From contig OY969706.1 of assembly GCA_963702095.1 (NCBI GenBank), positions 1,920,001-1,984,000 on the forward strand: 64,000 nt of DNA, written 5' to 3'. A program made the translations under genes and the position numbers. Below are positions 37,822 through 51,334 of the stretch, piece by piece; positions within the stretch are counted from its first letter, which is position 1, and the number at the start of each line of letters is the position of its first letter. The notes beneath the pieces are model-generated. The model ran no database searches. It had not been told where the DNA came from and was given only the letters and a program-made list of their open reading frames with translations. Source of the stretch: Candidatus Bathyarchaeota archaeon (GTDB lineage: Archaea > Thermoproteota > Bathyarchaeia > Bathyarchaeales > Bathycorpusculaceae).

Positions 37822-38088
37822 GTGTATAATGTGCTTTTGCGCCCTAAAGCTGCGAAGGCACTGCAACAACTCGACCAAACCAATAGGGAACGGATAAAAA
37901 ACGCGCTCAGACAAGTTGCAGACGACCCCTACCAAACCGGAGAACCACTACACCCCTCAGATTTCTGGAAAATAAAAGCAGGCGACTACCGAGCCATCTA
38001 CCAGATTGACGATGACAAAAAAGAGGTAATCGTGCTTTTTGTGGGGCATCGCAAAAATGTGTACGACAACCTCTCAAACGTAATCTAA
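37822..38088 (+). CDS. RelE/ParE family toxin
   Basis: YNVLL...A.KAL..LD, GDYRAIYQID, VGHRKNVY. Confidence 0.9.
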   Translation: MYNVLLRPKAAKALQQLDQTNRERIKNALRQVADDPYQTGEPLHPSDFWKIKAGDYRAIYQIDDDKKEVIVLFVGHRKNVYDNLSNVI

Positions 38089-38313
38089 CATGTTATAGAC
38101 TATGACATGGCTGGAAGGCAACCAATCCTGCGGCTACTTCGGAATCGACACAGACACCATCTACAAAGCAGCCAAAGAAAATCTTCAACCACTAAAAAAC
38201 CAAAATCTAAAAAATATTAAAAGAACAAGAAACAATAACCCCTATATTCTAAAGTCTCTGCCCCGCCCGCCCAACCATAAAACACACAATAAAAGAGTGC
38301 GACTACAACAAAC

Positions 38314-39148
38314 GTGCATATCCATAAGCGCTATGGCAAAGAAGTCACCGTCAAATACCACCCCAAAGCCAAAGCTGCTCGATGTTCGCTGACACGGCAA
38401 ATGGCTATCTTTGAGGGCACTTCAGCCGACTACAAGGCGCTCTGCGAATTCCACTACCGAGCACACCGAACACCACCCACACGCAAAATCTTCACCATAA
38501 AACGCAAAAACGAGCTCTGCGGAGTCATCGTGTATTGTTATCCGCCGCCGATGCGTTTCGGACGCAGACAAGTCTGGAAAGGCAGCATCAAAGAACTGCA
38601 GAAGGAAGTCAGCGTAATCAGCCGCATAGTCATCCACCCAAAATACCGCAGCATTGGCTTAGGCGAAAAACTGGTGCACGACACCCTCCTTTTTGCTGGA
38701 ACCCCCTGCGTCGAGGCAGTTGCGGTGATGGCAAAGTACAACCCCTTCTTTGAGAAGGCGGGAATTCAAAAGATCACACAGAGCAAACCCAGCAAACACG
38801 TCACCAACGCGTTGGAGCAGCTTGCGGCTTTAGGTTTTGATATTTCACTTCTGGCTTGTAGCGGCGCTCATCGAGCAGAAGCTGCTGGAAACCGGTGTTG
38901 ATCCAGTCAAAAACCTCCTCAACGAACTTTCAACGCACGACGGCAGCGTTCGCCGCAGACTCTGCAGCACCGAGAACCCTTTTCCAAGGCACGAAGAGTT
39001 TCTCCAAAAGATTGTGGGTTGGGACGCTGGGGATTTGGCGTTGGCACTTAAGCGGCTTAGTTTTTGTGCCCAGAGCAAGTTTTACTTGTTTTGGGATTCC
39101 AAACTTAAAATAAACGTTCAATGCAGAAAAGAGAAGAGAGGAGATTAG
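38314..39148 (+). pseudogene. Fragment of an ABC-ATPase/GNAT fusion (GNAT half), frameshift near 38862
   Basis: Begins mid-domain (HIHKRYGKEV); FHYR, GVIVY.YPP, ISRIVIHPKYRSIGLG acetyl-CoA motif, MAKYNPFFEKAG; continues in ORF 38837-39148. Confidence 0.7.
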
Positions 39149-39270
39149 TTTTGGTCTACCAGATGTGCGGTGCCGTCGGGGCAGTAGACTTTTTCGTCTT
39201 TGCCTACTTTGCGGTATCTTTCACTGCACATGTGGAGCATTTCACATCCGTCGCAGTCTCGGCTTAGCAT
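39145..39270 (-). CDS. Small Cys/His protein (41 aa)
   Basis: Manual translation MLSRDCDGCEMLHMCSERYRKVGKDEKVYCPDGTAHLVDQN; AGGAGG RBS upstream. Confidence 0.65.
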   Translation of the reverse strand: MLSRDCDGCEMLHMCSERYRKVGKDEKVYCPDGTAHLVDQN

Positions 39271-39708
39271 GGATTTTTTTCGCCTCCTGTTGGGGGTAGC
39301 TCCATCTGCATTTTGTGCTTATAAGCATATGTAATATGGATGTATAGCTCTGGGAGTAGCGGCGAGCAGGGAGAGGCTGTTTTGGATTGCATCCGCTTGT
39401 ATCGCAGACCAGGACTCTACGGGTTGCCCCGTGATTTTAGCGCGTGCCGAACGCGGGAACGGACATACCCCATGAATATGAAGGGCAAGGCGCAGAGATC
39501 TGCTGCTAACACGAGGGTTGCAGTATCCAACATGCCGTCATCCATCTGTCTTCGGTTTTGCTCTGTTAACAGTATATTCCGACGGCTGATATAAAGGGTG
39601 TTGAGAACTGTTCATAACAATTAAGAAAAACCAAACATACGGTCACACCAATTACATATTGCTAATCATACATGCAGAAAAACCCATAGCACCACAGACG
39701 AACGCAAC

Positions 39709-40272
39709 CTAAACCAGATTATCCACACGCACAATTGGCTTGCCCATCACATTGCGCACAGTGTCGACAACCATATAGGGAGAACGCACATACACCATCC
39801 GAGTATGTCTCTCACCCTGAGAGTTCACGGTTAAATCCCCATAACCGAAAACACGACCGCCCAACCCCTGATACAGCATTAAATCACCAAAACCCGAAGG
39901 CGTAACCATAAAAGAATGCAAGCGCACGATGCCACGGCGGACTTCTAATCCGTCTTGGCGTAGGATGTAACTGTTGGCATAGTAGAAAAGCAGCAGCTGC
40001 AGCATACTGATTAGCCATACAAACGTAAACACCAAAAGCGTCCACAAGTACAGAGGAACCCCCAAAAGCAGCACTATCGCTATGCCGCCGTACATTTCAA
40101 GAAACATTACGAACAAAGTGAACAAAACTATCAGTACGGTGCGCACGATCGCTGAGGGTATAACCCAAGGTTTAGCCATCCAAACCACGACACCGCGGTA
40201 AGGCGGCTTGCCAGAAAGAGTCAACGAAAAACACTGTCCACAATATAAAATGGGGAAGGGCGATTTAAGCAT
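39709..40272 (-). CDS. Membrane protein with bacterial PH (bPH_2) domain
   Basis: Two TMs followed by Y.L....L.VRRG...Q.L.GRVFGYGDL.V.S. Confidence 0.75.
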   Translation of the reverse strand: MLKSPFPILYCGQCFSLTLSGKPPYRGVVVWMAKPWVIPSAIVRTVLIVLFTLFVMFLEMYGGIAIVLLLGVPLYLWTLLVFTFVWLISMLQLLLFYYANSYILRQDGLEVRRGIVRLHSFMVTPSGFGDLMLYQGLGGRVFGYGDLTVNSQGERHTRMVYVRSPYMVVDTVRNVMGKPIVRVDNLV

Positions 40273-40284
40273 TCAAGATAGAAG

Positions 40285-40605
40285 CTACATGACCGGTCGA
40301 TGCAACACTACACGCTCGACGGAACGCAGCAGCTGATAACCGAATAAGATTGCCACAAAGTAGGTGGGCCAAAGAATCACCGGCCAGTTCCCCGGGGTGT
40401 AGTTCCACAGACCGGTGGAGACAGCGAAAAACTCCATCATCGCCAAAGAAACCATGCCTCCGCAAGCCAACAGTAACTGCTCTTTAATTTCATGGACAGA
40501 ATCATGCTTTCTGCGGACGAGCATTAAAAGTGCCCAAGCGCCTAAGAAGGCGAATAAAAGCGCATACCAACTTGAGTTAAAATCAAAAAAGACATTCATT
40601 TTCAT
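40285..40605 (-). CDS. Small membrane protein
   Basis: Three TMs, E.FAVSTGLWNY motif. Confidence 0.65.
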   Translation of the reverse strand: MKMNVFFDFNSSWYALLFAFLGAWALLMLVRRKHDSVHEIKEQLLLACGGMVSLAMMEFFAVSTGLWNYTPGNWPVILWPTYFVAILFGYQLLRSVERVVLHRPVM

Positions 40606-40613
40606 TTACCTAA

Positions 40614-41282
40614 CTAATGTTTTATTGTTTTTCTTCCTTTACGTGGGTGAGGGTAAACAGGTTTGTGGTTTGACCAGCATTTCTGGCAGAAAACCGGTTT
40701 GTCTGCTTTAGGCTGAAAAGGCACATCGCATTCAGAGCCGCATTCACTGCAAACCGCCTTATAAGTTGGGGATGTATGGAACGGCTTGAAAAGCTGATAC
40801 TTCTTTAGTTTTGGCCAACCGGTTTTTGCGTAGCGGATCATTTCAGGGTTATTTTTGAGCCACCGCATCATGTGGAAAAAGTTTTTGCCTCGCTTCTCAT
40901 CCCGCTCAGCTAGGGGTTCGTAGCCTAGGTTGCGGATTTCGTCGAGGTAAGCGATTTCTACGAGACGTTGGGTTTCACCTTCGACGTGGATGCGTTTAAC
41001 TCGGTCTTCGCCGTAGACTTTTTGGAGTTCTTCGGCGGCGACGTCGAAGATGCAGCCTTGGCAGATGTGGATGGGCTCGTCTGCTTTGAGGTCAAATTTG
41101 GAAACAAGGCTTGATACAACACGTGAAGATTCTTGGAGGTATTCTTTTTCTCGGAAGATGTCTTGGTAGAATCTGACATCGATTAACTCGTATTTGAATT
41201 CGCCTGTTTCTTCATGGTAAGCGCCGACTACAACGCCGAAAAGCAAGTCGCCGCTTCCTGCGTCGTCAACGATAAGTGTCAA
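40614..41282 (-). CDS. RNase HII-like fold protein with C-terminal CxxC-x17-CxxC zinc ribbon
   Basis: LIVDDAGSGDLLFGVVVG resembles the DEAGRG motif; AVCSECG.EC.VPFQP..DKPVFCQKC; probable TTG start at 41282. Confidence 0.65.
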   Translation of the reverse strand: MTLIVDDAGSGDLLFGVVVGAYHEETGEFKYELIDVRFYQDIFREKEYLQESSRVVSSLVSKFDLKADEPIHICQGCIFDVAAEELQKVYGEDRVKRIHVEGETQRLVEIAYLDEIRNLGYEPLAERDEKRGKNFFHMMRWLKNNPEMIRYAKTGWPKLKKYQLFKPFHTSPTYKAVCSECGSECDVPFQPKADKPVFCQKCWSNHKPVYPHPRKGRKTIKH

Positions 41283-41348
41283 TTGTGCTGTTTCACTCTC
41301 TCTTCTCAACTCAAATTGTCGGGGTAATATAAAAACCCGTCTTACCCA

Positions 41349-41450
41349 GGTTCTGTTAACTTCATGGGCGATGATTCTCTGTGTTAAGAATCGGGTGATA
41401 AATCCTCTCTTTTTTGTGGGCTGGATTTGGGCTGTTAATTTTCGGGTGAT
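41349..41450 (+). repeat. Left end: TIR plus iterated TGTTAA-N3-TCGGGTGAT motifs
   Basis: Motifs at 41354-41372, 41382-41399 and 41433-41450. Confidence 0.9.
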
Positions 41451-41663
41451 GACCGAACCGAGCATTTGAGTTCTGAAGTATCGGGTTGGGCTTCTGATTT
41501 CTGGGGCATCGGGCTAACATTGAGAGTTCTGAACGGGGCTGGCTGTTACTTGAATCGGCTAAATATAACAGCTAAAAACTAAATACCGATTGCACTCGCT
41601 AAATTGCAAAAAAAGTTACAATTAGCCTTAAATACTAACAATATCAGATAACCAACATCAGAA

Positions 41664-41936
41664 GTGTTTAGTATGGAGATAAAACTATTCGAGTTATTTA
41701 GAACCGACACTTTGCGCCATCGCGAAACAGCTAGAATAGTCGTTAATCTCTTAGAAGAAAAAAAAGAAACGCAAAATGTAATAGATTTTGACCAGATTGT
41801 ATTTGCCTCTCGTTCTTTTCTTCACGAATTATTGTGCGATATCGGCAATAAAAAAGTAGTCTTCCATAACACAAACGAGGAGATTAGACAAATGATGGAA
41901 ATAGCGAAAAAGGGAGTACATCCCTTACTAGCCTAA
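41664..41936 (+). CDS. STAS-like (DUF4325) protein
   Basis: R.TA..., IDFDQIVFASRSFLHEL, N.NEEIRQM. Confidence 0.75.
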   Translation: MFSMEIKLFELFRTDTLRHRETARIVVNLLEEKKETQNVIDFDQIVFASRSFLHELLCDIGNKKVVFHNTNEEIRQMMEIAKKGVHPLLA

Positions 41937-42751
41937 CTAACGAATTTATAAATTTCAATATCCTTGGGCGTAAAGTTTAGGGCAACTAAGGAACCATCCC
42001 ATCCAGATTTTAGCTTCAATATCTTCGTTTCATCAGCTTTATGATAAACTAACGCCTTTCCAGACATTATTATCATTTTACCGCCAAACCCATTTACGCA
42101 TAGTTTAGAAATACTTTGTATACCGTTGCCTCTGCCTTTCCAGTCTTTTTTAGAAGACTTGCCCTTAAAGGCATTAATTATTGCCTCATCATCTGTTTTT
42201 GCTTCGTATTCCGTGCCCTTATATGATTTTTTATAACCAATCCCGCAATCGGCAATAACAATCTCGCAAGTTTTTACTTTTGGTTTTTTATAATATTGAG
42301 CAAGAAGCCAATAATTATCAATATGAGCATGTTCATTTACGTTGTTGATTATTTCACTCGTAAAATACTTTAGCGCTGTTTTTTCTACGTTCATTTCCTT
42401 GATAATCCTATTTTCATACTCGCTGAGCATTTCACTGTCGGCTTCTTTGGCAACCATTTTAGTTATTGGTAAGTATTTTTTTGCTTTAGAAAAATCAGCA
42501 ACACCCTCTTGGAACCCAATAGTCTCAAGATAACGGCAAACATCTTCATCTTCTTCCAAACAATTGATTGTTAACTCATTATTGTTGGCATAGACAGCTA
42601 AGGGTAAAATTGAAAGAGGCGTAACAAACTTAACCTGTATTAAGTCAATTGACTTTTTACCACTGTTTATTGCTTTTTCCATTTCTGCAATATTTTTTAT
42701 TAGCTCATCGATTCGTTCTGATATCCCAAAAGGGTTAGCTATTACCTGCAT
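41933..42751 (-). CDS. STAS + GHKL (HATPase) anti-sigma-kinase-like protein
   Basis: IDL..VKFVTP, YLETIGF, SEIINNVNEHA (N box), IADCGIG (G1), GRGNGI (G2). Confidence 0.8.
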   Translation of the reverse strand: MQVIANPFGISERIDELIKNIAEMEKAINSGKKSIDLIQVKFVTPLSILPLAVYANNNELTINCLEEDEDVCRYLETIGFQEGVADFSKAKKYLPITKMVAKEADSEMLSEYENRIIKEMNVEKTALKYFTSEIINNVNEHAHIDNYWLLAQYYKKPKVKTCEIVIADCGIGYKKSYKGTEYEAKTDDEAIINAFKGKSSKKDWKGRGNGIQSISKLCVNGFGGKMIIMSGKALVYHKADETKILKLKSGWDGSLVALNFTPKDIEIYKFVS

Positions 42752-42816
42752 TTAGCCATACCTCGGTAGCCCTCAATGAGGGGAAAGTTGTATTTAAAAT
42801 TGTGTATCTAATGGCG

Positions 42817-43947
42817 CTAAGTATCAATTACCTGCTTGCTTGCGTTTTCTATGATAGTTCGCCATTTATCCTGTCCCTGAATCATAATGCCGCAAGCCTC
42901 GGCGGGTGTTTTGCCGTTTAAAGCCTCATGGGGTCTAACGTAATTGTGGTAAAGTTGATAGCCCTTAAGAATCTGAGTATCGGTCTTCTTTAATCCCCGC
43001 ATGACCTTTTCTCTATCTCGGATTTCTCCGTTCATGCGCTCCATTTTGTTGTTGTGAATATCCCCTCTAAGTTTGATGTGTTTAACATGCTCTGTTCTTG
43101 GTCCTTTTAGTGTCCAGAACTCTTTTTTGTAAGCATCATGATAAGACGCTAACCCATCAGTGACAAACACTGTGGGTTTTTTGCCCATAAGTTCCTTAGA
43201 CATTCTAAGTAGGTTGCGTGCATCATGCTTGTATTTTGTATCTGCGACTTCTTGGGCTATCCAGAAGCGGGTTTCATCGTCCATCATAGCAAACAAGTAT
43301 TTCATATCGCCGTTAATTTTTACCCAAACCTCATCAGCCCGCCACTTATCACCCACATTCGGCTTTATCTTTTCAAGATATTGGGTCATAAGTGTGGTGT
43401 ACTTGTTTATCCATTTTAGGATTGAGACATGGCTGATTATTACGCCTTGGAGTTTTAGGAATTTCTGGACATTGCGTAGGCTTTCTCCTGTGAAGTAGAG
43501 TTGCATGGCAGAGGTAATAACTTGTGGGCTTGCCTTCATCCCGTTAAAACCGACATTGACGCTAAAGCGTTTACCACATGCCTTGCAGAGGTAACGTTGT
43601 AGGTCATACTTTTTGTTGTGACGTATGGCATCCTTAACGATATTTTCTGAACCACAAAAAACACAGCTAGCCATATTTAGGGGTTGGATAACAATATTGC
43701 GTTTGACCTGTTCCTTCATTTTAAGGCTGACTTCAACGGCAACCATGTGTTTGCATTTTACATGACGGAATTGATGGTCTGGGCATTCACAGTTCCATTT
43801 ACCATCTACCATAAAAACCGCATATTCACCGTTTCCGCTTTGAGATTTCACGGTGTAAAAGTTCTCTTCTATACAATTTACTTGACTCTCTTTTGCTTGG
43901 GCGATTTCTAAGCCCCGACTTTCTCTTAAACTGCTAATAGCGTTCAA
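42817..43947 (-). CDS. IS6-family-like DDE transposase with N-terminal SWIM finger and zinc ribbon
   Basis: CECPD...CKH (SWIM), CVFCGS...QRYLCKACGKRF, HTH SLRNV, WRADE/YLFAMMD/VTDG/NNKMER catalytic motifs; intact 376 aa. Confidence 0.92.
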   Translation of the reverse strand: MNAISSLRESRGLEIAQAKESQVNCIEENFYTVKSQSGNGEYAVFMVDGKWNCECPDHQFRHVKCKHMVAVEVSLKMKEQVKRNIVIQPLNMASCVFCGSENIVKDAIRHNKKYDLQRYLCKACGKRFSVNVGFNGMKASPQVITSAMQLYFTGESLRNVQKFLKLQGVIISHVSILKWINKYTTLMTQYLEKIKPNVGDKWRADEVWVKINGDMKYLFAMMDDETRFWIAQEVADTKYKHDARNLLRMSKELMGKKPTVFVTDGLASYHDAYKKEFWTLKGPRTEHVKHIKLRGDIHNNKMERMNGEIRDREKVMRGLKKTDTQILKGYQLYHNYVRPHEALNGKTPAEACGIMIQGQDKWRTIIENASKQVIDT

Positions 43948-43982
43948 CCGCTAACACCTTGCAGTATATTACTAATAGGTAT

Positions 43983-44055
43983 AGCATATATATGCTTTAC
44001 GCTATTATACAAGCGCTATAATAGCAATCGTTATATACAATTGCTATTATACAAG
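43983..44055. promoter_or_regulatory. Operator-like repeat array in the divergent transposase/cargo promoter
   Basis: GCTATTATACAAG at 44001 and 44043, inverted TATAATAGC at 44017, palindrome AGCATATATATGCT at 43983. Confidence 0.55.
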
Positions 44056-44068
44056 TAACCGATGCCTT

Positions 44069-44239
44069 ATGGGCAAAGTACAGATTGAAGCATGGAAATG
44101 TGAGAGATGCGCACATGTATGGTTGCCGAGAAACACCTTTCAAGAGCCAAAAGTTTGTCCAAAATGTAAAAGCCCTTACTGGAATGTACCAAAGCGCAAT
44201 CAAAACATCTCAAAAGAGAAAAAAGGGATTGAAAAATAA
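44069..44239 (+). CDS. Zinc-ribbon microprotein (56 aa), coupled to the R-M gene
   Basis: MGKVQIEAWKCERCAHVWLPRNTFQEPKVCPKCKSPYWNVPK...; TAATG stop/start overlap at 44237-44241. Confidence 0.8.
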   Translation: MGKVQIEAWKCERCAHVWLPRNTFQEPKVCPKCKSPYWNVPKRNQNISKEKKGIEK

Positions 44240-46807
44240 TGTCAGAAAGTCTTTCTCAAGGATTACCTTTTTTGGAACTTAATCAGCAAGGCTTAAAACT
44301 TTACAAAGCAAACGATATACCCTTTACTAATCTCAAAGAAGCAGGATTTAATTGCCAAAAAAGCGCTAAAAAGCCTGACCAGTTTGTAGCGCAAGGCAAA
44401 AATATCTTAATTGGAATTGAGGATAAGGCATCATCAAGCGAAATTGATATTGCATCCAACCAATTAAAAACAAATTATTTAGATGCTCTTCCAGATACAA
44501 AATACTTCATAGCGAGAGCTGGTGAAAGAACTAAAGTATACTATCGAATTGCCTCTAACAAAATTATTGAAATCGGCACAACATCAAAAGGTAAGGAAGT
44601 TATTTGTTTCGCTGCAAAAATAATAACAGGTGAAAACAAAGAAATCCAAAAAAACCTACTTTATTTACCGAGCAAGTTCTTGCTGGGAAAGAGCCTATTA
44701 ACGGTTCAATCGAAATTCAACCCCCAAAAGAGTATTACAACCCTCTAATCGTCAAACAAAATACCATCTATAACCTATGGCAAAAAATATTCGTTTGCAC
44801 AGGCGAGAATGCACATAAATGCCTAGAAACCTTTGTAGAACTCCTATTATTCAAGGGAATATCAGATGCAAAGCTATTACCAAAAGATTTTTCGATAGAA
44901 ACTTTAGCAGACCCTAGTAAAAGCAACTCTCTTGAAACATACAAAAACACAGTTAGAAATTACATAAAAACCAACATATTCCCCACGATATCCAATCAAC
45001 CAGGTGTCATCAATGGTTTCGCATTTCAGGATGAAGAAACAGTTTTTAAGACTGTACTAAAGGACTTAATAGGTCTGGGAAATATAGCTCAGAAACAAAT
45101 CGACCCTGATTTTAAACGCAGAATAATTGAAGCTTTCTTAGGCTCAGCACATAGAGAAGGAACCATAAAAAATGGAAAACATCTAACACCAAGAGCAATT
45201 ATTCAAGCAATCTGGGAGATGGCAGACCCTCAAGAAGGAAAGCGTATCTGTGACCCCGCTTGTGGAGTAGGTGGCTTCGTTCTTAGAAGGTCTCAATTAT
45301 CCTTACGAATTTGACCCCATCAAATACAACTGCTTAGGGATAGATAGGGACGAACAAATGATAATCACGTCGAAAGCTAACATGATACTTCACATACTCG
45401 ACAAATTTCTTGATACAAGCATTGGAAAAAATGCTTTATCTGCAAAGATTAACTCGACATTCTATCAAGCTAAAAATAACGGAACAGGAACTCTGGGCGA
45501 ACTTGTAGAAGTTGCAGACAAAACGGCACAATTCCAACCTAAGCATCAAGCAGACTATGTTTTTTCCAATGTCCCCTTTTACATAAACGGAGTCACGCAA
45601 ATCGATGATAGCCTACGAGATTTAGGGTTCGCAAGTTTCTATAATGGGTGTGGTTTAGGAGTCGAAAGCCGATTTATTAAATATGTTTTGGGTCAGATAA
45701 AGAATGGCGACCCTGGACTTAGCTTTTGTAATTGTAACTGACGGCATATTATATCGGCACAAAGATAAGGCAAGAGAAACAATAAAGGAAAATGCGGATG
45801 TACTCGGTATAATCTCATTACCAGAAGGCGTTTTTCAAAACAACAACTGGAAAACCTCAATTCTAATCCTAAAAAAGAAAGGAGTACAACCTGAGTATTC
45901 ACCCGTATTTCTTTATAATGTTGACAACATTGGAATTTCCCTTGATTCTTACAGGACTCCTACTGAAGAAAATGATATACCTAACATGAAGAGAGCATGG
46001 CAACAGCGTTTTTCGGGAAAAACAAATGATGACCCAAAATGTAAATTGGTTCCAAGAGAGGATTTTATTAACGCTGATAAGTGGTCAGACCTGTTTGCAG
46101 ACTGGAGAAAAGCCGATACATCCAATAACATATCAATTTCGGAGTTTATTGAAAATGCAAGCAGTGTAAACGCTGATATCGGAAAAATGCTTAATGACGC
46201 AGATAAAAAACTTGGAGAAATCTTTGCTATGGATAGATACGCCGAGTTACAACTAAGTAACAAAATTTATTTCCAAGTTCAAACTTCGCCATTTAAAACG
46301 ACTGTAAAAACTGCTCGGCTTAACCCTGGAAGATATCCGTTATTCTCTTCTCAAGTTAATGGTCCAATCGAGTTTATGGAAGACAAGAAAACGCCACCTA
46401 TCTTAATTGGTAATGAAACAAATGGAGAAAATAAGAGACTTATCAGTTGGAATATAAAAGGTGACCCTTGTAAAGATATTAGGGTACACGAAGAACCGTT
46501 TTATGCCACCGAAAATAGAGGACTAATATCTGTAGTAAACGACAAGATTGATTTTCACTATTTGCTTTATTACTTGAGAGAGCATTTGGTTACATCAGGG
46601 AAGTTTAAGCGTTCTAATGAAGCCCATGCTGGTAAAGTAAAGAATATCAAGATTAAAGTTCCGATTGATGATAAGGGCAAAATCGATTTGTCGAAACAAA
46701 GAGAAATAGCTAAGAACTATGAAAAAATAGTGGATTTACGCAAGAAAATGACTGAGAGAATAACAGAGATGCAGACACTATTAAGTGAAATCGATATTTT
46801 CAAGTAA
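44239..46807 (+). CDS. Fused restriction-modification protein (PD-ExK nuclease + N6-adenine MTase + TRD; Type IIG/I-like), three frameshifts
   Basis: KPD...IEDK; GKHLTPR and ICDPACGVGGF in an unlisted frame (~44670-45280); SNVPF motif IV; IISLPEGVF; HsdS-like C-terminus; frame breaks near 44668, 45280 and 45720. Confidence 0.8.
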
Positions 46808-46924
46808 CGGTTTCTTGGTTTCAATTTTATTTTCCTATCTATCACTTTAGAGATATGTTAAGCGAAAAATAGGCAAACCTTATTTGCTTTCAGTTTTAAT
46901 AATATTTGATTTGGTGGTGTCATT

Positions 46925-47311
46925 TTGCCTAAATGCCCATCTTGTGGAACTAATACAGAGAGGGTTTTAAAGGAATGGGATTACTCATCATTCCATGTAA
47001 AGAATATGGAGTGCCCTAACTGTCTAAAAACCTTTAAAGTATACTTCAAAGAAGGCAAGCTTAGCCACATAATTGAGACCAACGAGGCAAATGCTAAAAA
47101 AAGAATAAAAGATTTTTTGGAAAAAACTGGGGGGGCAACAACATTAGAGATAGCTGATATTCTGGAACTTGATGTAATGGATGTTATACGGTTGCTTGGT
47201 GACCTTGAAGACGGTTTCGTTATTGAAAGAATCTCTCAACCAAAAGAGAAAGAGCATATGTTCCGTAAAACAAATAATAAACCAATTGAAAGCGCAATTG
47301 TTGATAATTAA
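46925..47311 (+). CDS. Zinc ribbon + winged-helix protein
   Basis: CPSCG...CPNC, then ATTLEIADILELDVMDVIRLLGDLEDGFVI. Confidence 0.75.
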   Translation: MPKCPSCGTNTERVLKEWDYSSFHVKNMECPNCLKTFKVYFKEGKLSHIIETNEANAKKRIKDFLEKTGGATTLEIADILELDVMDVIRLLGDLEDGFVIERISQPKEKEHMFRKTNNKPIESAIVDN

Positions 47312-47322
47312 CCCATCCTATT

Positions 47323-47414
47323 ATCACCCGACTGTTAACATGGACAATTTCCGCACCTAAACAATCACCCGAAACTTAACAAGAAGAAGTATCGCCCACG
47401 AAGTTAACAGAACC
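47323..47414 (-). repeat. Right end: TIR plus iterated motifs
   Basis: Reverse-complement motifs at 47323-47340, 47364-47381 and 47391-47409. Confidence 0.9.
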
Positions 47415-47497
47415 CTTACCCAAACTACATAAAAACAGGGAAAAACAGTACTAGATACATATTTTTGGAATAAGCATTGTAGAGTTACTACTTTTTG

Positions 47498-47905
47498 TTA
47501 GTGGTTGAGAGAATTATCACAGAATGGCGAGGTTTGCCTTGCAACCCCTGTGATGTTGCCTTCTACTGCTTTGATTAGTAGTTCTGTGTTTACTGGTTTT
47601 GAAAAAGCTATGTCGGCACCACACGCGATTGACGCTATAGTATTTTCCAGTGAAGGATAATCAGTTAAAACTACAGCTATTGTGCTTGGCAGCTGCTTCT
47701 TGGTGAACGTTAGGAGTTCGGTTGCATCGTTGCAGGAAGGACCATAATTGACAATTATGCATGAATAGGCGCTGTTTTGTATCTTCTTTTGGGCTTGCAA
47801 ATGGTCGCCCGCCACCTCAACATTGTAGCCTAATCTGCTAAATAATCTGTCGAAAGCTCCGGAAGTGCGTATGTCCGAATCAACAATCAAGAGTTTTTTA
47901 GCCAT
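47498..47905 (-). CDS. Receiver (REC) domain protein, atypical
   Basis: LLIVDSD, IIVNY (Asn at the phospho-Asp position), VLT, GAD..FSKP. Confidence 0.75.
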   Translation of the reverse strand: MAKKLLIVDSDIRTSGAFDRLFSRLGYNVEVAGDHLQAQKKIQNSAYSCIIVNYGPSCNDATELLTFTKKQLPSTIAVVLTDYPSLENTIASIACGADIAFSKPVNTELLIKAVEGNITGVARQTSPFCDNSLNH

Positions 47906-48051
47906 ACAATCCCCTTTTTGCTGTGAATTACCGTTTGGAAGGTTATAGAACAATGGTTGCTTTGGTACATATTTAGGGGTTTGTTGTAACAGCGTGTAAC
48001 CAACAAAGTCACCAAGCAGCCCTTTTCGCCTCAAAAAAGTGTTTTTTGTTT

Positions 48052-48181
48052 TTTCTAGTTTAAGATGAAGGCAGCGTCGCCCTTACTCATCTTCTTCTGG
48101 CGGGTCATGCAGGCGACTGCATTTTTTGTCCTGCAATTGATAGAGGTTTCTGGCTGGTTGTGGACGTTTCCACAAGCAGAA
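48052..48181 (-). repeat. Dispersed repeat family A, copy 3
   Basis: Reverse complement TTCTGCTTG-N12-CAACCA...GAAGAAGATGAGTAAGGGCGACGCTGCCTTCATCTTAAACTAGAAA. Confidence 0.85.
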
Positions 48182-48513
48182 CAACGGAATGTTGAATAAC
48201 AATTAGATAGCGCTTTTTATTCCTGTTTGAGTAATGAAAACGGTGAGATCTACCAAAACACACGCTTTATTTCTAGAAAAATCCAAAAAAGGGGATGACG
48301 CTGCATTTAGCTGCAGTTACTTCCAGAAGCATATGCCATGATGTTTCTCTTCTTTCTTTGCTTTAACAAACATTTTCAATCCAATCGCAGTCATAGCGGC
48401 TCCGATGCCTGCAAGCACCAGATATTTCTTGTAATGATGCATAAAATCACCCAGAAAACCCAACGGAAAAACATCTAATAAATTTGTGTTGGCACAAAAG
48501 AGAAGAACTCCCA

Positions 48514-48702
48514 CTAAACAGGGGTACCCCCCTCTACTTTTAAACGTTTGATTAGTGCCTCCATGTATTGCCTGTCAAACACCCGGTCTTCAAGTAAAGC
48601 ATTCGCCAACACATGAAGCTTCAAATCGTTTAGCACCGCAGTCTTCCGCAGTTCCTTATGGATGTTCTCGCGGACTTCAACTACAACACGCCTACTCATC
48701 AC
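48514..48702 (-). CDS. Small RHH-like DNA-binding protein
   Basis: RVVVEVRENIHKELRKTAV...L..LANALL. Confidence 0.6.
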   Translation of the reverse strand: MMSRRVVVEVRENIHKELRKTAVLNDLKLHVLANALLEDRVFDRQYMEALIKRLKVEGGTPV

Positions 48703-48707
48703 ATCAC

Positions 48708-50293
48708 CTACGGCTTGGAGGTTTTGTATCGGCTTAAACTGCTGGTTCGGCTACGCAGTACATACACGTAATCCGCTAACAGAGGCTTCTCATGCCCCAA
48801 CTCCAAAGTCGCCTGCATGGTCTGGGTTTTACCGTCAACCCTGTATTCGACGGATTCCACACGGAAATCGCTCTCTACACCTTCGTTGGGTAGGACGACG
48901 TGGATTTTGTCGCCTGCAAGGATGGGGTTGTTGCCGTAGTCGAGCACGGTGGTTTGGAGGCTCAGTGTTTCGGCGGGGTCTTTGAGGTTGGCAAGTAATG
49001 CTTTGGCGTGGGATTCACATTGCAGGTCGCTGGCATACTCTTCGTTGGCATCTACCAGTTCGCGGAGGCCGATGCTGTTTTGGCTTGCCAAATCGTTTTG
49101 GATGCTGCTGTAGCGTCTGCCCCCGAAGTTTAGGCCATCAACCCAGAAGTTGCCTGAACCTACACCCGTAAACCACAACGAGACCTGTACACTGTGGATT
49201 TGGTTCCAGTTGAATTGCCCTGGAATCTGCCATTGATCAGCGCTGTTGGACCCTACTGAGAGCTGTGTCTGGAACCATTTCCCGTCGCCCAAAGTCAATT
49301 CACGGGAGACAAGGTTGCTGTTGACGTCGTGGAGTACGATGGTTGCGTTGCCGTTGAAGCTGGCATCTCGGCTAAGCCAAAGGTTAAGGGTTGGGTATTG
49401 GTCAGCGTCGATTTCTTTGCCGCTGGCTAAGGTGAATCGAGAGCTGGCATAGTAGAGGTTTTGGGCTGCGGTTTTTATGCTGGCGGCGCCTTTGGCATAG
49501 TTGGAGGTGTCTTGGCTGATGCTGCCTGAAACCGCCATCCAAGCGCCGTCGCTGCAGGAGAGGGCTTCGGTCCACCCGTCCTTGTCTAGGGGGACGCTTT
49601 TGTCTTGGGCGCCGTAGATGATGATTCGGTTGCGGACGCGGGTGATGTCTTTGCTGTATTCACACCCTTCGATGCGTTCACTGAGGTCTACCTGGCTGTT
49701 TTTTGTGTTTTTGGGGTAGACTCGAATTTTCCGTCTGGGGCAACCCGATAATCGTAGCCTATTACGCCTGCTTTGTCAGCGCTGCCTGCGATTTCGCGGA
49801 GAATATCCATGACTGGGGTGTCGCTGTAGCTGAGTTTGGTGTAGGTGGTGTCGGTGGATTCTATGAGTTCGGCGCCGCTGCGGCTGTGGCTTAAGCCCAC
49901 GTAGTAGTCGAGGAGGTCTTTGACTATGTCTTCGCCTTTGATGTTTTCGTAGGTTGCGGTGACGACGCGGCGGAAGAGGCGTTCGCCCCAGCAGCGCCCG
50001 CTCACTGTGAGATAGTTTTCTGCTGGGCTGGATTGATACTTGATGTTTTCGACCCGGCAAGTAATCAGCTGGGGACAGCTGGCGCCTCTGCATAGGCTTA
50101 TGCTGCCATCTAAGCCCACGGTGATGGGGTATGAGCCGTTGGGACTGTATTTGCCACTCCAATTCTGCAGCACCACCTCAAAACTGCTGACTTCTTTGGT
50201 GCAGCCCAAATGCAACATCAACTCCACAACGTCACCCTGCGGAGGAGTGACGGAGCCGAAAACGATGGCTACATCGGGGGTGTCAAGGCTCAT
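48708..50293 (-). CDS. Viral tail/baseplate-hub-like protein, frameshift near 49720 (provirus relic)
   Basis: The two ORFs join through FE/YPKNTKNSQVDLSERIEGCEYSKDITRVRNRIIIYG; hub-like N-terminus and AGDKIHV..PNEGV...FRVESVEY C-terminus. Confidence 0.65.
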
Positions 50294-50584
50294 TTATTCG
50301 ACTCCTCTACGGTAGAGTTCGTCTTCGCCTGCCCGGATGATTTTCCGTGTGGCGGTAGCGGTTTGGGCGGTTGTGCTGTTGAAGTTTTGCATGCTGGCGG
50401 TGGCGGTGTTCATGCTGTTAGCGAAGCCATACATGGCGGCGGCTGCGGCGACGATGGCGTCGATGCCTTCTCGGGGGTTTAGGATGATGGTTTTTAAGGT
50501 TTCTGCTTGAAAGTCTTCGGGGCTTCTGTGCCCGCTTTTTATGGTTTTATCGGTTTCTTCCCATGGCATATTACTATACCTCAC
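50294..50584 (-). pseudogene. Chimeric remnant: head-module-like N-terminus fused to tape-measure-like C-terminus
   Basis: MPWEETDKTIKSGHRSPEDF...EGIDAIV switches abruptly to AAAAAMYGFANSMNTATASMQNFN. Confidence 0.5.
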
Positions 50585-50694
50585 ATGTCTGATAGCCAGT
50601 TAATAAGCAAAGAAAGTGAAAAGGCGAATTGTACAACGGGTTGAGCCACGCGGTGAGTCACCGGTGACCATCCTGTTGGGTCATTTACCAGAAA

Positions 50695-50913
50695 ATGGGA
50701 GAAGAGAAATGTATGCCTAGAAAGTGTATAGTTAGAGTTGTGCTTAGCAAGGAGCAAAGAGAGATACTTACCGTGTTGTCTACGCGTTTGGGGACAAGCG
50801 AGAGCGAGGCGATGCGGATGGCGCTTATGGATTACGTGAAAGAATTGAGTTTGATGTCTGAGACGCTGCATCGAAACAGAAACAAGCGCGTGGAGGATCA
50901 AAGCAAGAATTAG
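50695..50913 (+). CDS. RHH (CopG-like) regulator
   Basis: IVRVVLSKEQREIL..LS.RLGTSESEAMRMAL. Confidence 0.75.
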   Translation: MGEEKCMPRKCIVRVVLSKEQREILTVLSTRLGTSESEAMRMALMDYVKELSLMSETLHRNRNKRVEDQSKN

Positions 50914-50923
50914 CTGCAGATTA

Positions 50924-51052
50924 TTTTTAGTGTAGATGAAGGCAGAAGTGCCCTTACTCATCATCTTCTTGCGGGCTTTGCTGGCGACTGCTTTTTTGTA
51001 TCTGCGTCTTGTTTGGGTTGCAGTCTGGTTGAGGCAGATTCCGCAAGCAGTT
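50924..51052 (-). repeat. Dispersed repeat family A, copy 4
   Basis: Reverse complement CTGCTTG-N12-CAACCA...GAAGATGATGAGTAAGGGCACTTCTGCCTTCATCTACACTAAAAA. Confidence 0.85.
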
Positions 51053-51217
51053 CGGTATGCAGCGATTAAGAAGGCTCTGTTGCTCTGCCGACCTATCCCC
51101 TTCCTTATAGGTAGAAAGACAGATTTTCTCTCTTTGTGTGGGTGTGGCGGTTTAGGGGGCACCACAAGACTGCAATTGTGGGCGGTTGCTTTTTGGCTTT
51201 GCAACGTTTTTCTCTGT

Positions 51218-51334
51218 CTGTTTCGGTGTGGGATACACTTTTTTCCCCACATGCGGTGCATGGCTCTATGTTGAAGCAATCAGGATGTGGATGCGAAGCA
51301 TGCACAACCCCCAAAAGAACCCACAATTCCACAG
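51218..51334. repeat. Dispersed repeat family B, copy 2
   Basis: CTGTTTCGGTGTGGGATA...TTTTTCCCCACATGC..TGCAT...ATGTTGAA aligns with 13701-13757. Confidence 0.6.

Follow-up and report, generated by a model that had tools for sequence, protein, structure and literature searches.

A probable cargo-carrying unit transposon with an IS6-like transposase in a Bathyarchaeota genome, and its relatives

Boundaries of the element and its empty site

The DNA examined here, called the window throughout, is a stretch of 64,000 nucleotides from the genome of a Candidatus Bathyarchaeota archaeon (GenBank assembly GCA_963702095.1, contig OY969706.1, positions 1,920,001 to 1,984,000 of the forward strand). Direct reading of the window together with a repeat search delimited an element of 6066 bp at window positions 41349-47414, which contains a single transposase gene, at least five further genes and one pair of inverted ends, and is flanked on both sides by exact copies of the 8-bp sequence CTTACCCA (Table 1). 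A first-pass annotation of the same letters had described a complete unit transposon of about 6 kb with an 8-bp target-site duplication, and both the flanking copies and the single copy found in a relative (see below) bear this out. Coordinates are those of the window unless the genome or another contig is named.

Both inverted ends carry the tip GGTTCTGTTAAC. A repeat finder paired them over 51 nucleotides (41349-41399 and 47364-47414) with 84% complementarity, and there is one mismatch between the two within the first 24 nucleotides. The 24-bp terminal inverted repeats noted in the first pass correspond to these terminal 24 nucleotides, but the ends are more complex, spanning 51 nucleotides and having further sites. 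In the genome, a single contig of 2.94 Mb, the exact 15-nucleotide tip has no occurrence other than these two. When up to two mismatches were allowed, it was found at 6 forward and 5 reverse positions with both ends counted, compared with 4 forward and 3 reverse positions for a control in which the tip was read backwards. The element is present as a single copy in the genome, and its interior is AT-rich, as had been annotated, with a G+C content of 37.3% against 48.5% in the 3 kb of flank on each side. A search of positions 38000-50000 against Rfam returned no matches.

The unaltered stretch 39500-49500 was compared with 40 relatives in a search for the empty site. In a genome of the same genus (G007), on a contig of 15.5 kb (C67) that ends 788 bp into the left flank, a match to the left flank with 93% identity up to position 41348 adjoins a match to the right flank with 81% identity from position 47415. 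The two matches overlap by 8 bp in the alignment, which corresponds to one CTTACCCA at the junction. Because the flanks are contiguous in this congener with a single copy of the 8-mer, an empty site of the form anticipated by the first-pass annotation exists there, and the comparison of the two sequences indicates that the element inserted after the split from this relative. The recent insertion that had been suggested is supported in so far as it is later than that divergence. By our own reading the insertion point is intergenic, approximately 45 bp upstream of the gene for a zinc-finger protein, with a response-regulator gene ending immediately beside it.

One pair of inverted ends around a transposase and its passengers, a target duplication and an empty site are together what defines a unit transposon. 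We conclude that positions 41349-47414 are very probably an autonomous, non-composite DDE unit transposon, or cargo-carrying insertion sequence, with an IS6-like enzyme. This agrees with the non-composite, cargo-carrying archaeal transposon derived from IS6 that was first proposed, and its support comes from the single transposase, the empty site and 45 bounded relatives. We considered whether the outer repeats could instead be fortuitous or foreign and the transposase an ordinary short insertion sequence within a genomic island or provirus. A gene for a YQBQ-like protein (48708-49538) lies 1.3 kb to the right and the region as a whole is poor in genes with annotated function, both of which would fit such a setting. 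However, the boundaries of the empty site in the congener coincide exactly with the outer repeats and the 8-mer is present there once, the repeat search revealed no tighter inverted repeat around the transposase gene, and the outer architecture is also found at 45 of 80 independent loci, which makes this explanation extremely improbable.

Two features of the right flank lie outside the element. A sequence of approximately 140 bp at 48037-48189, immediately upstream of the response-regulator gene, recurs in at least six other places of the genome with 77-82% identity and is also found in the congeners G005, G007 and G014. It has no Rfam match and could represent either a short repetitive element or regulatory DNA that these sites have in common. 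Further to the right, the 276-residue open reading frame (ORF) at 48708-49538 matched the YQBQ-like family with 33.8 bits (cut-off 27), which we take to be a family of phage-tail-like (PBSX-type) proteins, and the neighboring ORFs have no Pfam family. The region 48708-51279, to which this ORF belongs, may be what is left of a tailed provirus next to the point of insertion.

Table 1. Window coordinates of the sites and genes of the element.
Feature	Position	Strand	Remarks
Left copy of the 8-bp target-site duplication, CTTACCCA	41341-41348		Single copy at the empty site of the congener
Left terminal site, GGTTCTGTTAACTTCATGGGCGAT	41349-41372	+	End downstream of the transposase gene
Left subterminal site 2, TGTTAAGAATCGGGTGAT	41382-41399	+	Repeat search; offset (~+34) shared with a site in relatives
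Left subterminal site 3, TGTTAATTTTCGGGTGAT	41433-41450	+	Repeat search
DUF4325 (STAS-like) protein, 90 aa	41664-41936	+	Language-model look-alike search, 0.92
GHKL/HATPase-like ATP-binding protein, 272 aa	41933-42751	-	Partner of the DUF4325 gene; language-model look-alike search, 0.98
Transposase, 376 aa, intact	42817-43947	-	SWIM finger, Zn ribbon, helical DNA-binding region, IS6-type DDE core
Zn-ribbon protein, 56 aa	44069-44239	+	Weak zinc-ribbon matches; same neighbor of the R-M gene in relative L064
Single-chain restriction-modification (R-M) gene	44239-46807	+	N-terminal region, N6-adenine methyltransferase, specificity domain; split over four frames
128-aa protein	46925-47311	+	N-terminal CxxC...CxxC ribbon, probable winged-helix C-terminal part
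Right subterminal site 3, reverse complement, TGTTAACAGTCGGGTGAT	47323-47340	-
Right subterminal site 2, reverse complement, TGTTAAGTTTCGGGTGAT	47364-47381	-
Right terminal site, reverse complement, GGTTCTGTTAACTTCGTGGGCGAT	47391-47414	-
Right copy of the 8-bp target-site duplication, CTTACCCA	47415-47422

The transposase and the iterated sites at the ends

The first-pass annotation had assigned to the element one intact DDE transposase with additional SWIM and Zn-ribbon domains, and profile matches and invariant residues confirmed this assignment. The protein matched the DDE model PF13610 (DDE_Tnp_IS240) with 58.3 bits (cut-off 27), the SWIM model with 23.0 bits (cut-off 19.6) and the IS1/IS1595-type Zn-binding domain NF050000 with 30 bits (cut-off 28). 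In an alignment with 49 relatives, the SWIM ligands C53, C55, C65 and H67, the ribbon cysteines C95, C98, C121 and C124, and the catalytic residues D205, D264 and E303 together with R310 were all invariant. This transposase is the sole recombinase of the element, and IS6 models were the best-scoring transposase family for it. When 72,556 plasmid records were searched with the transposase by tblastn, at least 5000 records were matched. Among the 25 rows sampled, every family-level annotation was that of an IS6-family transposase (IS257, IS1216, ISS1, IS6100 and IS26 types), with 7 rows having no family annotation under the match, and the best plasmid match in this sample was a clostridial IS6-family gene aligned over residues 64-362, including the Zn ribbon, with 28% identity. 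The next-best transposase in the archaeal genome is a full-length paralog, 55% identical, at genome positions 1161831-1162919 (L002), for which one recognizable end only (GGTTCTGTGAAG-type, at genome position 1163941) was found within 9 kb.

Each end of the element contains, in addition to its terminal site, further copies of a motif of ~20 bp. The subterminal motif TGTTAA-N4-TCGGGTGAT is located at offsets of approximately +34 and +85 at the left end (41382 and 41433) and of approximately +34 and +75 at the right end, and has no occurrence in the genome outside the ends of the element. A degenerate fourth copy may be present at the left end around 41470-41489. Relatives keep this layout, while the motif varies with each element's own terminal site: it is CGGGTGAT in L019, L021 and L022, CGTGGGAT in L018, L087, L064, L085 and L070, and CGGGAGCT in L057. 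In a crude count that allowed up to two mismatches, a 14-mer located beyond nucleotide 24 recurred between or within the ends, usually at equal offset, in 32 of 38 elements compared with 5 of 38 interior controls. The arrangement of a terminal site plus one or two further sites of ~20 bp at each end, which co-vary between elements, is new here, and we predict from it that the iterated sites are bound by the transposase. Two ends resembling those of this element (89% and 81% identity over ~100 nucleotides) were also observed on another contig of the congener G007 (C14; L107:2027 and L107:3026). Separated by 1 kb, they point the same way rather than being inverted, and may be solo or nested ends.

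Related elements, their cargo and the passengers of this copy

Homologs of the transposase are numerous, with 5575 at E <= 0.001 in the protein collection. The surrounding loci were scanned in one genome per species, which gave 80 loci, most of them in records titled Bathyarchaeia/Bathyarchaeota or Nitrososphaerota/Thaumarchaeota. A strict boundary search, which required an exact 10-mer inverted seed and a duplication matching at 7 or more of 8 positions, returned 37 loci at which the ends are of the GGTTCTG type and the 8-bp duplication is perfect, and a looser search of the other 43 loci added 8, for a total of 45 of 80. A search for the same ends and 8-bp duplications around homologs within 10 kb had been suggested as a check; they are indeed present, and the longest element exceeds that length. 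The shortest bounded element measures 2153 bp and the longest 12099 bp; counting the present one, the median length is 3591 bp. No bare insertion sequence of ~1.3 kb was observed among the 46 bounded elements, and tight inverted repeats without cargo, the arrangement that would have spoken for a simple insertion sequence, were not seen, the smallest bounded relative being 2153 bp long. The G+C content is below that of the element's own flanks in 44 of the 46, and a strong consensus is absent from the duplicated 8-mers. Among the 35 loci outside this set, one contig of 2193 bp (L058) consists of exactly one element.

BLAST clustering of 233 ORFs revealed no conserved second transposition gene, as only the transposase is common to all 38 elements compared, and no Pfam family was found above threshold for the upstream ORFs of ten small elements. 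The element belongs to a large clade whose bounded members all carry extra genes, most often for R-M. Two bounded members with perfect 8-bp duplications (L113:8576-11159 and L115:8650-11586) were also found in IMG/VR, on viral-classed contigs of 55 kb and 76 kb. The second is the same in its ends, duplication and size as the element at L042, whose contig was assigned to a bacterial bin. Either these elements may be carried by viruses or proviruses, or the binning may be wrong.

The cargo was surveyed with a Pfam scan of 81 ORFs of at least 120 residues from the 37 relatives found first. DNA methyltransferase and restriction families were the most frequent: N6_Mtase (9 matches), Eco57I (7), UPF0020 (7), N6_N4_Mtase (5), HSDR_N_2 (4), HSDR_N (3), Methylase_S (3), MmeI_Mtase (3) and Mrr_cat (2). 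Single matches include RE_BsaWI, RE_AlwI, Fic, SocA_Panacea, TBP, AAA_14/DUF4143, DUF3800 and a nested DDE_3 transposase, and many of the cargo ORFs match no family. The PADLOC matches of the cargo were mostly to methyltransferase and specificity models. A DNA methyltransferase or R-M gene is present in at least 17 of the 46 elements (this element, L017, L018, L019, L021, L022, L023, L025, L027, L030, L036, L057, L061, L064, L085 and L087, with L029 included by tblastn similarity only), a lower bound because most ORFs of 8 later elements were not scanned. Six elements contain a small gene, AbrB-like by eye, that is oriented divergently to that of the transposase.

A second, different IS6-like cargo element is located in the same genome at positions 1193229-1197102 (L116:229-4102). 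It is 3874 bp long and has perfect 22-bp ends, GATACTGTTAAGTTAAGTTACC, and a 9-bp flanking repeat, CTTAGGGGA. Its transposase of 306 residues contains a Zn ribbon and an IS6-type domain and lacks SWIM, and its cargo consists of a 460-residue N6_N4 methylase-Mrr fusion and a 244-residue protein with no assigned function.

The small passengers of the present copy had been annotated as STAS, STAS-HATPase, Zn-ribbon and Zn-ribbon-winged-helix proteins, and these assignments stand in part. The 90-residue protein, which probably starts at the ATG at 41673, fell among DUF4325 clusters in the look-alike search, and its counterpart in L029, 48% identical, passes the Pfam DUF4325 model with 27.1 bits (cut-off 23), but its own match to this model has an E-value of 0.13. 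For the 272-residue protein the HATPase part of the assignment is supported by look-alike matches to 'ATP-binding protein' and HATPase_c clusters and by N, G1 and G2 boxes identified by eye, but searches of Pfam, NCBIfam and PADLOC returned no match. The N-terminal STAS part proposed for it is putative. The two genes form a pair that is also present in elements L021 and L029, and neither protein matched a PADLOC defense model at E <= 0.01. A literature listing for DUF4325 yielded nothing on the pair. The stop codon of the 56-residue Zn-ribbon gene overlaps the start codon of the R-M gene, so that both genes probably belong to one operon. The 128-residue protein has homologs in L019, L021, L022 and L030, and the L022 homolog matches MarR_2 with an E-value of 0.004. 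A Zn ribbon and a winged helix are weakly supported for it by its sequence, and the Pfam support is weak.

The R-M gene had been described as a fused gene, but it is not a single open frame in this assembly. Frameshifts near 44660, 45283/4 and 45722 divide it into four pieces, which are colinear with the intact relative P0121 over all 854 residues with 76-93% identity. In all, 44 full-length relatives of ~854 residues were found, the best of them 76% identical over the last piece. This last piece matches PF02384 and the PADLOC models MTase_I/Specificity_I, and a putative nuclease motif was identified by eye in the N-terminal region. The arrangement resembles Type IIG-like single-chain R-M proteins in that the ~854-residue relatives combine an N6-adenine methyltransferase with a C-terminal specificity region, and cargo proteins of sister elements related to this gene match HSDR_N, Eco57I and MmeI_Mtase. 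It is set apart from them by the three interruptions of the frame in this assembly and by a nuclease part recognized by eye only.

The three breaks raise the question of whether a real transposon here carries a decaying passenger, with the R-M gene a true pseudogene and no defense cassette in this genome. All three fall inside a stretch of 2.57 kb, and the element's five remaining ORFs are uninterrupted. Two of the breaks (45283-45284 and ~45722) are, by our own reading, an extra A in the same CTT-A-G context, outside homopolymers, and the loss of a toxic endonuclease is common after transfer. On the other hand, all four pieces keep their identity to an intact relative and contain no in-frame stop made by substitution, the completeness score of the genome is only 90% despite its single contig, and an essential class-I aminoacyl-tRNA synthetase of the same assembly (genome positions 1013132-1015759) is also split into three frame pieces of 187, 604 and 102 residues. 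Because this synthetase is broken likewise, assembly indel errors are plausible, and decay and error are not separable for the R-M gene; we consider true decay a serious possibility, somewhat short of an even chance. The shared CTT-A-G context could have arisen by chance, through systematic miscalling of bases at a modified motif, or by real mutation. The split synthetase suggests that the same caution bears on every apparent pseudogene of this genome. A role as a mobile defense cassette, as first annotated, is supported at the level of the family, where R-M is the commonest identifiable cargo, but not for this copy with its frameshifted gene.

Mechanism, family status and comparison with known systems

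We envisage that several transposase protomers would use their helical region and N-terminal zinc modules to bind the iterated sites at both ends, bring these ends together and cut at the GG tips, and that the cut ends would be joined to target DNA with an 8-bp stagger. As the catalytic core is IS6-like, a replicative copy-in route that yields a cointegrate, resolved by host homologous recombination, is favored over cut-and-paste. By homology with IS26-type enzymes it would be the likeliest route, at about an even chance, with cut-and-paste a credible though clearly less probable alternative. The ORF list and Pfam searches revealed no resolvase and no helper ATPase among the ORFs of the element, and there is no second copy in the genome. 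Provided that the R-M gene is intact in the cell, it would equip the element with a payload for defense or addiction. Readings of the element as composite, Tn3-like, Tn7-like or a tyrosine-recombinase island were rejected, since the genes they require are absent.

Several points weigh against the interpretation of the element as a mobile unit with an IS6-like enzyme. The score of the transposase against the NCBIfam IS6 model NF033587 is 125.2 bits for a cut-off of 125, a margin of 0.2 bits. Its identity to plasmid IS6 transposases in the 25 sampled rows is 23-32%, over residues ~134-356, which is below the 40% transposase identity to other members that is quoted as an IS6 criterion in the cited portion of PMC7986276. 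In the portion of their article cited here, Harmer and Hall considered archaeal and long zinc-finger 'IS6' elements only distantly related and proposed their exclusion (PMC6807381). An AlphaFold2 model built from the 49-sequence alignment was poor (mean predicted local distance difference test score 66.8, below 50 in the catalytic region; predicted template modeling score 0.47), and its fold thus lends no support. Neither a PDB sequence search with the transposase nor a Foldseek search of the PDB with the model at E <= 0.001 returned a match; weaker Foldseek rows, to the ISCth4 transposase and retroviral integrase cores, were rejected as evidence.

Further points of the same kind come from the loci. 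A bounded element with a duplication is lacking at 35 of the 80, many of which are on short contigs. Four of these 35 have an end pair without a duplication (L034 and L076, perfect over 25 of 25 positions, and L035 and L033, weaker). In L034:8653-12023 and L076:1285-4405 the inverted ends are perfect over 59 and 65 nucleotides, respectively, the 8-mers differ between the sides, and no second copy or swapped-flank partner was found in their assemblies. Rearrangement, adjacent deletion or an assembly join are possible explanations, and these two elements fit neither copy-in nor cut-and-paste cleanly. The evidence here does not discriminate between the two routes, and mobility itself is deduced from sequence alone. 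Finally, with the R-M gene broken into four frames in the assembly, the defense payload may be dead here.

The distance from IS6 also bears on whether the clade should be regarded as a transposon family of its own, outside IS6, defined by SWIM and ribbon domains, multi-site ends, obligatory cargo and possibly cut-and-paste movement. The low and partial identity to IS26-, IS257-, IS1216- and IS6100-type enzymes, the model score right at the cut-off, the absence of a bare insertion sequence among the 46 bounded elements and the proposed removal of archaeal and long forms from IS6 all favor such a separation, as do the two or three sites per end compared with the 15-20-bp repeat described for IS6 in the portion of PMC7986276 cited. 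Against it, a tip of GG followed by CTGTT and an 8-bp duplication are IS6 hallmarks in the same portion of that review, IS6 models score best among transposase families, and family limits are a matter of convention. We place this separation only just under an even chance. A broader proposal, on which we are evenly divided, is that the elements form a distinct, undescribed family of Bathyarchaeia and Nitrososphaerota that has an IS6-like core with SWIM and Zn-ribbon modules and multi-site ends similar to those of Mu and Tn7, always carries cargo and is a main vehicle of R-M genes. If true, this would be the first cargo-carrying DDE transposon family with inverted repeats to be documented in Archaea.

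A 2019 survey of mobile elements in Thaumarchaeota, in the portion consulted, gives passenger-carrying DNA transposons as undetected in archaea (PMC6563490). Our literature search, which had ISfinder, TnCentral and supplementary files outside its scope, returned no account of cargo-carrying IS6-like transposons from these archaea and no equivalent of the catalogued kind that the first-pass annotation had allowed for; the element may have been named before. The term SWIM has no occurrence in PMC7986276 or PMC6807381. Aloposons, which according to the cited parts of PMC8813620 and PMC11529989 are elements with giant genes that integrate at tRNA sites, were set aside as unrelated.

With the reading as an IS6-like unit transposon, the locus and its 45 bounded relatives reveal a large archaeal clade where kilobases of cargo travel as one unit by means of a lone IS6-like transposase, and where the ends are more complex than the IS6 repeat. 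The clade suggests a concrete route for the spread of R-M genes in uncultured archaea of soil and sediment, and offers a test case for the effect of extra zinc modules and iterated end sites on an IS6-type mechanism. A simple system of one protein and two ends is also a possible genetic tool for archaea.

Classical IS6 members are 0.7-0.9 kb long, contain one gene and a 15-20-bp repeat, and move cargo only in two-copy pseudo-compound structures, as described in the cited portion of PMC7986276. Their movement is by replicon fusion (cointegrate formation), and the copies of the pseudo-compound structures are directly repeated. The present element shares with IS26, IS257, IS1216 and IS6100 the DDE core, including the downstream R310 and the profile matches, the GG...CTGTT-type tip, the 8-bp duplication and the lack of a resolvase. 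It differs from them in its size of 6 kb, in the one transposase accompanied by at least five further genes, in the three sites per end and in the SWIM and ribbon modules, and its transposase falls short of the 40% identity level. The long clostridial IS6 members (clades h and i of Varani et al. 2021; VII and VIII of Harmer and Hall 2019) likewise have a zinc-finger extension ahead of the helix-turn-helix and DDE regions. In the cited portion of PMC7986276 such extensions are described only in these clostridial clades, and the descriptions set their members apart as elements of 1.2-1.8 kb, cargo-free and from Clostridia. ISDsp3 of Dehalococcoides, the one IS6 member to which the cited part of the 2021 review (PMC7986276) ascribes a passenger gene, also combines one transposase and a passenger inside its repeats. 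By its description there and in PMC6807381 it is ~1.45 kb long, with one hypothetical gene, and known from one genome. Here, the clade comprises thousands of transposases with cargo of up to ~11 kb.

Transposons of the Tn3 family have a transposase of ~1000 residues, a resolvase, repeats of ~38 bp and a 5-bp duplication. The element described here fits none of this, with its IS6-like enzyme of 376 residues, no other recombinase and an 8-bp duplication. Mu, Tn7, Tn402/Tn5053 and Tn552 bind their transposase at several sites in each end and use a helper ATPase (MuB, TnsC or TniB), in some cases also a resolvase; their duplication is 5 bp. The element resembles Mu, Tn7, Tn402 and Tn552 in its same-orientation subterminal sites at both ends and in the cargo carried within a single unit. 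Compared with these transposons, it has an 8-bp duplication and no helper AAA+ gene among its ORFs, its only ATPase-like gene being of the GHKL type. The combination does not amount to a new principle of transposition; what these comparisons point to is a cargo-carrying IS6-like transposon.

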